Shown here: one piece after another, positions 4,397 through 12,652 of the stretch
Layout of the letters: the number at the start of each line of letters is the position of its first letter
How positions within the stretch are numbered: the first letter of the stretch is position 1
From: a virus
Lineage: Duplodnaviria; Heunggongvirae; Uroviricota; Caudoviricetes
Length of the DNA stretch: 12,652 nucleotides
Direction: 5' to 3' (one strand)
IMG/VR virus record: IMGVR_UViG_2660238360_000005
The notes under the pieces: model-generated
Told to the model about the DNA's origin: nothing
Seen by the model: only the letters and a program-made list of their open reading frames with translations
The model's database searches: none
Position numbers and translations under genes: made by a program

Positions 4397-4581
4397 TGTG
4401 CACATCCTTTTGGCATCAGACGTAAACGAGCCAGCATTGAAACAATGCATATTTTATTTAATAGCTCCCGTTCTTGTTTTCTCTTGTTAATGGCATCTTC
4501 AGTAAATACTGGGTTACTGATAGTGACACCAATTTCAAAACAACCTTCAGACGTATTAACGTTTGGTAATAACGTTTTCAT
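4393..4581 (-). CDS. Hypothetical small protein (62 aa)
   Basis: ATG at 4581 preceded by GAGGA with 7-nt spacing; stop overlaps the start of the downstream small ORF (ATGA), implying translational coupling. Confidence 0.45.
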   Translation of the reverse strand: MKTLLPNVNTSEGCFEIGVTISNPVFTEDAINKRKQERELLNKICIVSMLARLRLMPKGCAQ

Positions 4582-5148
4582 TATCGCGTCCTCAACAATG
4601 AATTTTGTGATGCAGTGCCTGGTGCCTCCAGGTGACGTTAACCAGTTAACAATTAACGCCGGATACAGAGAATCCACCCATAACACTGTTTTTGGTTTTA
4701 ACTGTTCCGCGTGCGCTCAGCCGCATTCACCACATCACAAAATTCACTTTAAAAAGGGCGGCAGAGCAGTCACGGAGTAAAACTGATACCGCCAAACGTC
4801 ACCAGAAAATTGATAACAGAGGGCGTTGCAGCGGGGTTGTCACTTAAGCGTATGGTCAACCTGACAACCCGGTGTCCTCAACGGGGAAGAAATAACCCCG
4901 CCATACTTACCGCCGCACCATTTCGCGGGTTGCCACAACCGGAAGCGCACGGTCGACGAAAATTTAACGACAGGCTATCTATGAACCAGCTACCTCGCCG
5001 TGCGCTTTCGCGTTATGGTCTGACTTTTCAGGGAAATATCCTTTCAGTAAACTGTCAGTGCCGGATGCTCACCCGTGTCCGGCGCACGCACTCCACCTCA
5101 CCCGTGGAGAACTCCTTAATTACCAACCTTAGCTTCGTTGGTTAGCTA

Positions 5149-9652: not shown

Positions 9653-9821
9653 TTTTGGTTCAACTAAATACAACGTCAGTTTTGAAGAATGGCATGAACT
9701 GTTAATGGACTATGCAGAGTTACGTGGTGGCAGTGCTGCTGATGCTGAAGCATGGCGTGATGATTATGAAGCAGGAAAAACTCCGGTCGAAGCATATTGT
9801 GATGAGTGGGGCGATGAATGA
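9645..9821 (+). CDS. Hypothetical strongly acidic small protein (58 aa)
   Basis: Not in the ORF track. MADFGSTKYNVSFEEWHELLMDYAELRGGSAADAEAWRDDYEAGKTPVEAYCDEWGDE; coupled at both ends (start overlaps upstream stop; stop overlaps downstream ATG as ATGA at 9818-9821). Confidence 0.5.
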   Translation: MADFGSTKYNVSFEEWHELLMDYAELRGGSAADAEAWRDDYEAGKTPVEAYCDEWGDE

Positions 9822-10134
9822 GCGAGGTTAATTATCAGGAAGGGCATGAAACGGCGGGGCAAGCAAAAACAGTGGCATGGCGATATCGCTACGTGAAAAA
9901 AAAGGCGTTACGGACTTTCAGGGGAAGTAGTGGTCTGGTGACTGGAAATATGTACCGAAAAAAGAGGATTGTAACGACAGGCCGAACTATGAAATTCAGG
10001 CCTTATTCACTGCCCCGCCAGTCCCGGTTACATCAGAAGAACTGGTTAAAGCTGTGCACTTTTATGAACAACTAAAACGCGAAAATCCACCAGCATCCGG
10101 AAACCTGATTACAGATTCCCAGATAAGGCAATGA
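9818..10134 (+). CDS. ORF interrupted by a -1 frameshift (programmed frameshift candidate or disrupted gene)
   Basis: Frame A is open from ATG 9818. The -1 frame is open from 9931 to TGA 10132-10134 with no start codon and encodes a protein-like C-terminus (..PNYEIQALFTAPPVPVTSEELVKAVHFYEQLKRENPPASGNLITDSQIRQ). The frames are linked by an in-frame A_AAA_AAG heptamer (9958-9964). An A8 tract lies upstream (9896-9903). Confidence 0.35.
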
Positions 10135-10304
10135 GCTACCTGGCGCAGAACGGGCTGATAAGTATGGGGAATGTTTTACGATGAATATTTAGACTAAAGA
10201 GTTTGTAACGCTATGTAAGTGATTTTTTCTGGTTTAGATATTTATATGTCCGGCCAAATTGAGGTGTGTTTAAATGTAATTGCACATTGATTGTAGGAGG
10301 AATA

Positions 10305-10484
10305 ATGAAAAACGCATTGCAGTTTTTGTTTGTTGCGTTCTGGTTGTTCGTATCATGTATGCCCATCATCTTCACAGCAAGGTATATGGAAAAAGTTGAT
10401 GTTTTGATATTAATATTTGGATATATAAATGCCCTTTTTTTAGGGGTGTTCATGGCGGTCATGTGCATTGAATACTGGCGGTAA
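10305..10484 (+). CDS. Hypothetical small membrane peptide (59 aa, two predicted transmembrane helices)
   Basis: ATG at 10305 with AGGAGG 4 nt upstream; MKNALQFLFVAFWLFVSCMPIIFTARYMEKVDVLILIFGYINALFLGVFMAVMCIEYWR; conspicuously AT-rich relative to its neighbours; flanked by imperfect direct repeats. Confidence 0.5.
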   Translation: MKNALQFLFVAFWLFVSCMPIIFTARYMEKVDVLILIFGYINALFLGVFMAVMCIEYWR

Positions 10485-10539
10485 ATACAGCGAACGCCAT
10501 TGGTTTAGTTGGATATTTACTGTGCCGGACAAAAACGGT

Positions 10540-10567
10540 TTGCGGGGAAATCTTAGTTAAGTAGAAT
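10540..10567 (+). promoter_or_regulatory. Putative hok mRNA promoter
   Basis: TTGCGG (10540-10545), 16-nt spacer, TAGAAT (10562-10567), placing the start near the gcgggtgcttgagg 5' element (10572-10585). Confidence 0.4.
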
Positions 10568-10624
10568 GACTGCGGGTGCTTGAGGCTATCTGTCTCAGGC
10601 ATGAACACCAAAAGGCAGATAGAG

Positions 10625-10692
10625 AAAAGCCCCAGTTAACATTACGCGTCCTGCAAGACGCTTAACATTAATCTGAGGCCATATCTATGCGA
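10625..10692 (-). ncRNA. sok: Putative Sok-like antisense RNA (boundaries approximate)
   Basis: Minus-strand promoter-like TTGACC (plus 10724-10729), 18-nt spacer, TAATCT (plus 10700-10705) inside the mok-like frame would start an antisense transcript near 10692 covering the mok-like start and leader, as in hok/sok loci. 3' end not defined. Confidence 0.3.
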
Positions 10693-10746
10693 CACATAGA
10701 GATTAGCCTCTTACGGACCGAAAGGTCAAGGAGAAGCAGGCTATGA
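10687..10746 (+). CDS. mok-like short coupling ORF (19 codons)
   Basis: ATG 10687; its TGA stop (10744-10746) overlaps the hok ATG (10743-10745). Much shorter than the mok frame as I recall it from plasmid R1, so the assignment is tentative. Confidence 0.35.
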   Translation: MRHIEISLLRTERSRRSRL

Positions 10747-10898
10747 AGCAGCAAAAGGCGATGTTAATCGCCCTGATCGTCATCTGTTTAACCGTCATAG
10801 TGACGGCACTGGTAACGAGGAAAGACCTCTGCGAGGTACGAATCCGAACCGGCCAGACGGAGGTCGCTGTCTTCACAGCTTACGAACCTGAGGAGTAA
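10743..10898 (+). CDS. hok: Hok/Gef-family type I toxin (51 aa)
   Basis: Not in the ORF track. MKQQKAMLIALIVICLTVIVTALVTRKDLCEVRIRTGQTEVAVFTAYEPEE has one transmembrane helix and the conserved Hok/Gef C-terminal region; AAGGAGAAG SD upstream. From memory it matches chromosomal HokD/RelF closely. Confidence 0.9.
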   Translation: MKQQKAMLIALIVICLTVIVTALVTRKDLCEVRIRTGQTEVAVFTAYEPEE

Positions 10899-10966
10899 GA
10901 GACCTGGCGGGGGAGAAATCCCTCGCCACCTCTGATGTGTCAGGCATCCTCAACGCACCCGCACGT

Positions 10967-10993
10967 AACCCGCTTCGGCGGGTTTTGTTTTTT
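10967..10993 (+). terminator. Rho-independent terminator of the hok transcript
   Basis: Stem AACCCGC / GCGGGTT with ttcg loop, followed by TTTTGTTTTTT. Confidence 0.75.
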
Positions 10994-12455: not shown

Positions 12456-12465
12456 NNNNNNNNNN
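12456..12465. other. Assembly gap (10 N)
   Basis: Literal run of n characters; flanking sequences belong to unrelated genes. Confidence 1.
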
Positions 12466-12652
12466 TGAAAATATCGGTACGATATTGACCGAGTGTGACA
12501 ACCTGGTCTGCCGAGTCAGTATTCACTGAACAGGCAGCATTCACCAGTTCGCCTTCAAAGTGAATTGTACCGCCATCTACAACGGCAGCATAACTACCCG
12601 TAGCGGCGAATAGTGCGGCAGCCAGCGCAGACGAAATAAATCTTAATTTCAT
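12466..12652 (-). CDS. Type 1 fimbrial major subunit family protein, 5' fragment (N-terminal 62 codons)
   Basis: ATG at 12652. [59 protein letters not shown] has a signal peptide followed by the conserved FimA-like N-terminal segment (GGTIHF.GE.VNAAC). Truncated by the gap. Confidence 0.75.

Follow-up and report, generated by a model that had tools for sequence, protein, structure and literature searches.

The 12,652-nucleotide stretch of DNA analyzed here (IMG/VR record IMGVR_UViG_2660238360_000005, hereafter the window) carries, immediately upstream of its hok/sok module, a 59-aa open reading frame (ORF) within an AT-rich segment that also holds an imperfect direct repeat. The explanation that best accounts for the data, and that we consider somewhat better than an even bet, is that this ORF is a genuine gene for a helical-hairpin inner-membrane accessory protein and that the repeat has no demonstrated role. 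An earlier note based on the letters of the window alone had described an AT-rich gene for a two-helix membrane peptide directly upstream of hok, and this description is supported by the analysis: the ORF is present on the plus strand behind an AGGAGG sequence, its product has a grand average of hydropathy of +1.31 with two hydrophobic blocks, and AlphaFold2 models it as two helices. The gene and its ribosome binding site are placed as follows.

10295–10300, plus strand: Shine-Dalgarno (SD) sequence AGGAGG, read from the sequence, 4 nt before the ATG.
10305–10484, plus strand: gene for the 59-aa two-helix membrane protein (MKNALQFLFVAFWLFVSCMPIIFTARYMEKVDVLILIFGYINALFLGVFMAVMCIEYWR), identified from the ORF list, the paralog comparison, AlphaFold2 and intact frames in 84 of 84 related loci.

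Comparison with a diverged relative indicates that the ORF is a true protein-coding gene kept by purifying selection. An exhaustive HMMER scan of 1.84 billion representatives recovered a second 59-aa protein with 41% identity (P0066/P0072), referred to here as the paralog. The two reading frames align over 59 gapless codons, with nucleotide identities of 58%, 73% and 47% at the first, second and third codon positions, respectively, and yield a nonsynonymous divergence (dN) of 0.44 against a synonymous divergence (dS) of about 2.3 (saturated), for a dN/dS ratio of about 0.19. The ORF is taken to be coding because of this gapless codon alignment, the codon-position pattern and the dN/dS ratio, and because the frame on the opposite strand is broken in the paralog.

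The latter frame matters because it is the one that has been annotated in some records.

10211–10468, minus strand: 85-aa shadow ORF and not a gene, although three phage records annotate it ('hornerin' or hypothetical).

This minus-strand frame contains six stops in the paralog, has no SD sequence visible in the window, and is intact in only 69 of the 84 window-lineage loci, as against 84 of 84 for the plus-strand frame. The 'hornerin' ORF was hence rejected as a shadow frame, and the plus-strand 59-aa ORF is identified as the gene. Neither the 59-aa ORF nor its paralog is annotated in the RefSeq records inspected, which derive from the Prokaryotic Genome Annotation Pipeline (PGAP); some GenBank submitters have labeled the 59-aa ORF 'putative membrane protein'.

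The AlphaFold2 model, computed from a nine-sequence alignment, places helices at residues 2–26 and 32–58, joined by a 5-residue loop, with a mean predicted local distance difference test score of 72. Nineteen alignment columns are invariant (M1, L5, L8, W13, S17, C18, P20, I21, I22, T24, L36, F38, G39, N42, A43, L44, E56, W58 and R59), and conserved residues gather on one face of each helix: W13, S17-C18-x-P20 and T24 on helix 1, and F38-G39-x-x-N42-A43-x-x-x-G47 on helix 2. G39, A43 and G47 would form a small-residue zipper and N42 would be an intramembrane polar residue. The positive-inside rule suggests an N-in/C-in topology, with Lys and Arg at the N-terminus and a neutral or acidic loop, and the conserved faces suggest self-association or docking onto another membrane protein. 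A function could not be read from the fold, since the model is a generic hairpin and the best Foldseek match against BFVD and PDB has an E-value of 0.8.

No match to the protein was found in Pfam, PHROG, NCBIfam, PADLOC or the PDB sequences, where the profile search returned nothing. A profile search for distant members returned only the two Escherichia/Shigella branches, and a word-indexed protein search only Escherichia/Shigella proteins at least 90% identical to the query, together with truncated forms. These searches define what appears to be a previously unnamed family of two branches confined to Escherichia/Shigella. Two putative variants were set aside as assembly or read errors and were not used as evidence: a 'divergent homolog' (L009, 53%) showing many small differences and single-base homopolymer indels, and a read-through form (P0006) from a 736-bp contig (L006) at coverage 1.7, with differences concentrated in homopolymer stretches close to the contig end. 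The window-type cassette, that is, the variable segment carrying the gene, is found in 1,569 of 5,426 complete E. coli genomes, always at 95% identity or more, as well as in three deposited phages and four plasmid-labeled records; the whole 10100–10750 stretch, including the hok leader, is present in 1,550 records. The paralog occurs in 1,045 of the same 5,426 genomes.

The paralog occupies a fixed chromosomal site with a ttcA-like gene (PF01171), a truncated integrase, the ORF, truncated ABC-3 genes, and Usp, porin and PFOR genes, which we take to be the ttcA...uspF-ompN-ydbK region. The locus is collinear with the window over the DUF977 gene (74% identity), the 3' end of the ORF with 22 nt of flank (68%) and a set of hok codons (window 10811–10872, 81%). 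The hok promoter, leader and 5' two-thirds have been deleted there, leaving only a hok remnant, and an Rfam scan of the locus detected no sok. Because of this collinearity, the neighborhood of ORF and hok should predate the split of the two branches. The linkage thus appears to be ancestral and not obligatory, the ORF having outlived hok in the paralog remnant. Loss of hok is also seen among the window-type loci: in 26 of the 84, homology stops at 10744, within the hok start codon, with the 59-aa ORF still intact. In PhiR42_1 (L005, 2145–3533), the sole inspected locus of those 26, an ISNCY-family element sits at the hok start (GGCTAT|TGTTAACACC...), where it would disable hok and spare the leader and the 59-aa gene. 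Conversely, many prophages carry an intact hok and lack the 59-aa ORF. The two genes are linked but not mutually dependent, and the persistence of the 59-aa gene where hok has been destroyed argues against an obligatory coupling to Hok.

The boundaries of the segment carrying the gene were defined by comparison with relatives that lack it.

10131–10184, plus strand: 3' end of the upstream early-region gene (...MSYLAQNGLISMGNVLR), from translation and alignment with 689R5/933W; TGA stop at 10182–10184.
10181–10184, plus strand: ATGA gene-boundary motif, in which the stop of the upstream gene overlaps an ATG; end of homology to ORF-less relatives.
10185–10526, plus strand: AT-rich variable segment (the 'cassette') with the 59-aa gene; breakpoints from relatives, with an unrelated segment of about 80 nt in ORF-less relatives.

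The ORF-less relatives 689R5, AVS0533 and 933W diverge from the window between 10184/10185 and 10526/10527. The left flank is matched by 689R5 and AVS0533 up to the ATGA, and the right flank from 10527 onwards (GA[C/T]AAAAACGGTTTGCGGG...) is common to all three relatives and the window. A left boundary at 10183, seen in H53, was rejected as a module boundary because it results from an IS1 insertion. The AT-richness claimed by the earlier note holds for this segment. Its GC content, computed on 10184–10526, is 35.3%, whereas the window as a whole has 47.7%, the sequence upstream 43.6% and the sequence downstream 51.7%. Just 0.3% of all 343-nt windows reach such an AT content, and the GC minimum of the whole window falls here. 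In the ORF-less relatives, its place is taken by an unrelated segment of about 80 nt, which encodes a 27-aa hydrophobic ORF in 933W (L002, 2419–2502) and AVS0533 (L093). This ORF begins at the ATGA overlap with the upstream gene, and in 689R5 it carries a frameshift. No significant similarity was found between the cassette and this alternative segment (P = 0.36). Because the relatives hold a different segment in place of the cassette, the event is best described, on these alignments, as a replacement and not as an insertion with duplicated ends.

The same slot upstream of hok has other occupants. CI5 (L095, 1064–1168) has an annotated 34-aa ORF with an SD sequence (MSDDISLAMEGALAVIAVVIVYCLVVFLMDRLGN), BLR(DE3) (L096) a hydrophobic ORF of about 29 aa, and ETEC1730 a divergent pair of genes for a Ser/Thr kinase and a PP2C phosphatase; in K-12, the slot of the Qin prophage holds relBE. 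That short hydrophobic putative ORFs keep reappearing in the slot upstream of prophage hok is suggestive. The ORFs of 27 aa (933W/AVS0533), 34 aa (CI5) and about 29 aa (BLR(DE3)) resemble the 59-aa gene in position, strand and hydrophobicity, some of them with an SD sequence or an ATGA overlap, but differ from the 59-aa family in having a single helix and unrelated sequence (hhalign probability of 0.5% for the family against the 27-aa peptide). Two ORF-less loci also present near-perfect palindromes (ATGTGGGAATCCCACAT in L094 and ATATGGGAATTCCCATAT in L095) about 25–55 nt upstream of the hok -35 element. Lying just before the conserved sequence with which the hok module opens (GATAAAAACG...), they could be operators or terminators; the window lacks them.

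The 59-aa gene, which shares the strand of its neighbors, belongs to the early-right ('nin-like') region and lies between DUF977/ea22-like genes and hok/DUF968/RusA/Q. In a hexamer scan, no sigma-70 promoter for the gene reached 9/12 matches, the best upstream candidates scoring 7–8/12, and no terminator was found between the early genes and the 59-aa gene. The only terminator-like site lies after hok, so transcription from upstream would read through the 59-aa gene. With no 9/12 promoter and no preceding terminator, read-through of the phage early operon upon induction would probably be its main route of transcription. The protein would then be translated from the strong SD sequence, insert into the inner membrane as an N-in/C-in helical hairpin, and oligomerize or bind a partner there. 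Its role is most likely, at low confidence, accessory and non-lethal, either in superinfection exclusion or in modulating a membrane protein, rather than that of a second Hok-like killer.

Several observations weigh against this account. The seven variable sites within the ORF among the 84 near-identical loci comprise one synonymous and six amino-acid changes, five of the latter being hydrophobic-for-hydrophobic and the sixth Tyr to His, so that variation among these loci is uninformative, and the lower polymorphism density of the ORF relative to its flanks is only borderline (P = 0.065); together, the 1:6 ratio and the borderline density leave no demonstrable sign of recent purifying selection among window-type loci. 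The length of the ORF is not by itself significant at this composition (P = 0.12), and a literature search by peptide sequence strings found no paper. The functional assignment draws on position, topology rules and conserved residues only, and structure searches gave only generic helical hairpins (E > 0.7). Finally, a perfect extended -10 element (TGATATAAT), noted by eye, lies about 75 nt upstream of the paralog ATG (L099, 5918–5926); it is absent from the tool-based promoter scan, having no -35 match. The paralog copy may consequently be constitutively expressed, in which case a model of read-through only would not apply to the whole family.

The rival that survives best, though we still judge it unlikely, is that the protein is a second membrane toxin or lysis helper that damages or depolarizes the inner membrane, as a type I toxin or a class II holin/pinholin-like protein would, acting together with Hok on induction. 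The protein is indeed small and very hydrophobic, its Gly/Ala zipper and intramembrane Asn are typical of oligomerizing helices, and the gene stands next to hok in both family branches. Moreover, hokW-sokW of Sp5 has been reported to assist lysis and phage release after mitomycin C treatment (PMC8621323), which keeps a lysis helper as the main rival. The protein has, however, no similarity to Hok or to any holin or toxin family, and its gene is located in the early region, not in a lysis cassette. The cassette (10185–10526) contains no Rfam RNA and no conserved antisense promoter or terminator: the Rfam match to sok (10574–10745) serves hok only, and a promoter-like site on the minus strand of the paralog is, by eye, not conserved in the window, although a novel small RNA (sRNA) is possible. 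The paralog is intact in a decayed prophage remnant, behind an apparently strong extended -10 and with no visible antidote, a situation hard to reconcile with a potent toxin. For these last reasons, a benign role is favored over that of a Hok-like killer.

A more speculative reading, which we regard as a long shot, is that hok and the 59-aa gene constitute an ancestral membrane module of two genes, in which the hairpin would modulate Hok and the slot would be a diversifying partner locus. If so, the hairpin might gate or potentiate the insertion of Hok, or act as a protein-level brake in the manner of an antiholin, and the module would bring a protein into a toxin-antitoxin system whose control is regarded as lying with RNA alone.

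It is also very improbable that the ORF is non-functional, that is, a frame that arose by chance or is decaying within AT-rich spacer DNA, possibly silenced by H-NS. The lack of annotation in the inspected RefSeq records, the non-significant length, the excess of non-synonymous over synonymous polymorphism within the lineage and the frameshifts seen in a minority of database entries would all fit such a frame. They are set against the gapless 59-codon paralog with its codon-position pattern, low dN/dS ratio and 19 invariant residues, the strong SD sequence, and a frame kept intact in every one of the 84 loci, and the reading of the ORF as a genuine gene is therefore retained.

The second part of the preferred explanation concerns the repeat, the two copies of which lie on either side of the gene.

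10230–10258, plus strand: repeat copy 1 (TGGTTTAGATATTTATATGTCCGGCCAAA), inside the cassette, polymorphic and without counterpart in the paralog.
10501–10533, plus strand: repeat copy 2 (TGGTTTAGTTGGATATTTACTGTGCCGGACAAA), spanning the right breakpoint, at -73 to -41 of the hok promoter.

The earlier note had reported imperfect direct repeats at these sites, which are indeed present, and had seen in them either a shared regulatory element or the joints of an inserted cassette; the similarity is weak (P of about 0.005) and the copies are polymorphic. Without gaps, 18 of 25 positions agree (72%; 10234–10258 against 10509–10533), and with three gaps about 27 of 30. The local alignment score is 25, compared to 15.6 ± 2.3 for dinucleotide shuffles (P = 0.005, uncorrected for the free choice of region in the earlier note), and the core TGGTTTAG-N(0-4)-ATATTTA, a pattern defined post hoc, occurs only at these two sites in the window. 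The spacing of about 40–45 bp to a small membrane-peptide gene, claimed for both copies, stands for one: copy 1 ends 46 nt before the ATG of the ORF, whereas copy 2 lies about 209 nt before the hok ATG (10743). It is the 5' end of the hok mRNA (10574, Rfam RF01794) that lies about 40 nt downstream of copy 2, and, since copy 1 is thus measured to a gene start and copy 2 to a transcript start, the two spacings are not equivalent.

Among the 84 loci, polymorphic positions number 4 of 29 in copy 1 (10231, 10248, 10250 and 10255), 3 of 33 in copy 2 and 7 of 180 in the ORF, making the repeat as polymorphic as its surroundings or more so. Nearly all cassette loci carry both copies, those with a single one having the 10231 polymorphism or a truncation, and the ORF-less loci (L002, L003, L093–L096) carry none. 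The paralog locus lacks the repeat, and its 5' and 3' flanks are dissimilar (P = 0.6). A counterpart exists there for the first bases of copy 2 alone (CATTGGTTT), which are homologous to the paralog 3' flank (...GAAC..CATT[G/A]GTTT). The repeat is hence either a short duplication specific to this lineage or a similarity that arose by chance in AT-rich DNA, without a demonstrated role. The idea that the copies are relics of the 3' end of the 933W-type 27-aa ORF was rejected: a slight likeness is visible by eye, but local alignment does not exceed shuffles (P = 0.36 and 0.88 for the cassette and its 5' part, respectively, against the 933W segment). Nor is a promoter role supported for the GATATT motif common to both copies (best -35 pairing 7/12).

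We likewise give little credence to the possibility that the repeats are functional, either as a cis element (binding site or promoter-upstream element) that would co-regulate hok together with the 59-aa gene, or as an RNA element bracketing the ORF. Beyond a local similarity exceeding that of shuffles, the former could invoke the position of copy 2 just upstream of the hok promoter; for the latter, TGTCCGGC at 10247–10254 can pair with GCCGGACA at 10524–10531, like the fold-back element of hok, and this 8-bp long-range stem is present in both the minimum free energy and the centroid fold of 10184–10540 (z = -2.2), with two of its three polymorphisms yielding G-U wobbles. The third, 10248 G>A, breaks the stem, however, and the z-score is marginal, leaving the stem a weak curiosity. 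Against the shared-element version, neither the paralog nor any ORF-less hok locus has the repeat, the latter loci keeping an otherwise conserved hok promoter; copy 1 is highly polymorphic relative to the ORF; and the distances of the copies to transcript and gene starts are not equivalent: a transcription start site equidistant from copy 1 would fall within the SD sequence. Least probable of all is that the repeats are the joints of an inserted cassette, as target duplications or recombination scars, for although the segment is deviant in composition and missing from related prophages, and copy 2 spans the right breakpoint, copy 1 lies 45 nt inside the left breakpoint (10184/10185) and the ORF-less prophages carry no copy at all and hold instead the different 80-nt segment, which has no significant similarity to the cassette.

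The remaining features belong to the setting of the gene. The window corresponds to the early region of an E. coli prophage of the lambdoid (Qin/Rac-like) kind, and E. coli FDAARGOS_401 is 100% identical to it over 10100–10750. The gene order in the RefSeq record of that strain is a YdaT-like gene, helix-turn-helix/replication genes, DUF977, ea22-like genes, several small hypotheticals, a frameshifted gene, hokD, a hypothetical, DUF968, RusA and an antiterminator. The hok module and its signals are placed as follows.

10540–10567, plus strand: hok mRNA promoter, with -35 TTGCGG (10540–10545), a 16-nt spacer and -10 TAGAAT (10562–10567), from the hexamer scan.
10574–10745, plus strand: hok mRNA leader and complementary sok region, Rfam RF01794 (106.7 bits, E = 6e-24).
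10687–10746, plus strand: mok-like leader ORF of 19 codons, from translation; its TGA overlaps the hok ATG (ATGA).
10743–10898, plus strand: hok (HokD-type) toxin gene, 51 aa; NCBIfam Hok family, and hokD in the identical RefSeq locus.
10967–10984, plus strand: intrinsic terminator 3' of hok, the sole terminator-like site from the early genes to this point.

The position of the hok promoter fits the start of the Rfam model, which marks the hok mRNA 5' end, at 10574; the promoter is conserved in 933W, 689R5 and AVS0533, and the conserved hok module begins at 10527. In 933W, mokW is annotated as an N-terminal extension of hokW with the same stop (2656–2868 versus 2713–2868), and the mok frame differs between alleles owing to small indels in the leader. 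A weak isrK-like Rfam match (27.1 bits versus a gathering score of 50) at 10907–10988, over the hok 3' untranslated region and terminator, is probably driven by the terminator hairpin. The gene upstream of the cassette (window 9818–10184) is broken in this strain, RefSeq flagging the identical locus as frameshifted with an internal stop; its counterpart is an intact 204-aa ORF in strain Ecol_448 and has 114 aa in phage 689R5. Elsewhere in the window, a full-length DicF sRNA lies on the minus strand at 4756–4807 (RF00039, 76.7 bits, E = 7e-16), adjoined by a sub-threshold STnc100-like match at 4549–4758 on the same strand (34.4 bits versus a gathering score of 47), and the two are consistent with a Qin-like dicB/dicF region. 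A run of 10 N at 12457–12466 follows the first codons of an antiterminator-Q-like ORF (MRDIQMVLERWGAW...), and 12467–12652, past the run, holds the N-terminus of a fimbrial-subunit-like gene on the minus strand. Because of this change of genes across the N gap, the window appears to be a scaffold join, in which the prophage DNA is not contiguous.

What stands out here is that the gene is common in E. coli, with the window-type form in 29% and the paralog in 19% of complete genomes, that its family has two diverged branches, and that it is unannotated or called on the wrong strand; the kind of object is ordinary. No curated protein family covers either branch, and a correct gene call would repair both the inspected RefSeq records, where the gene is unannotated, and the three phage records that carry the wrong strand. 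It also brings a further member, conserved and with two helices, to the expanding catalog of small membrane proteins in bacteria. For studies of prophage hok/sok systems, the neighboring 59-aa gene is one to include or control for in deletion and induction work. In other respects, this is an ordinary uncharacterized prophage accessory gene, with no pointer to a new mechanism.

The known systems nearest to the gene include the Hok/Gef type I toxins (Pfam Hok family), the family of its neighbor. Like them, the 59-aa protein is small, hydrophobic, prophage-borne and predicted to reside in the inner membrane, and it is linked to hok in both branches. Unlike Hok, it has two helices instead of one and lacks the Cys-containing periplasmic tail; its gene shows no detected mok-like leader ORF, structured long leader or antisense RNA, and persists without a visible antidote. 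No match to Hok/Gef or other type I toxin families, such as Ldr, TisB and Ibs, was found in Pfam, NCBIfam, PHROG or PADLOC. Class II holins and pinholins, such as S of phage 21, are two-transmembrane (TM) proteins. The 59-aa protein resembles them as a two-TM hairpin of about 60–70 aa with a glycine-zipper-like face, but its gene lies in the early region and not beside endolysin and spanin genes, has no dual-start motif, and has no PHROG holin match.

The gene also recalls the phage 'moron', a concept of Juhala and Hendrix, in being an AT-rich accessory gene between conserved phage genes and variably present among relatives. It differs from morons in having no recognizable promoter or terminator of its own and in that its relatives hold an alternative segment instead of a clean empty junction. 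Small phage membrane proteins that exclude superinfecting phage, such as T4 Imm and HK97 gp15, share no sequence or significant structural similarity with the 59-aa protein. They are nonetheless like it in size class, membrane hairpin, early or prophage expression and non-essentiality, features that in the case of the 59-aa protein are putative.

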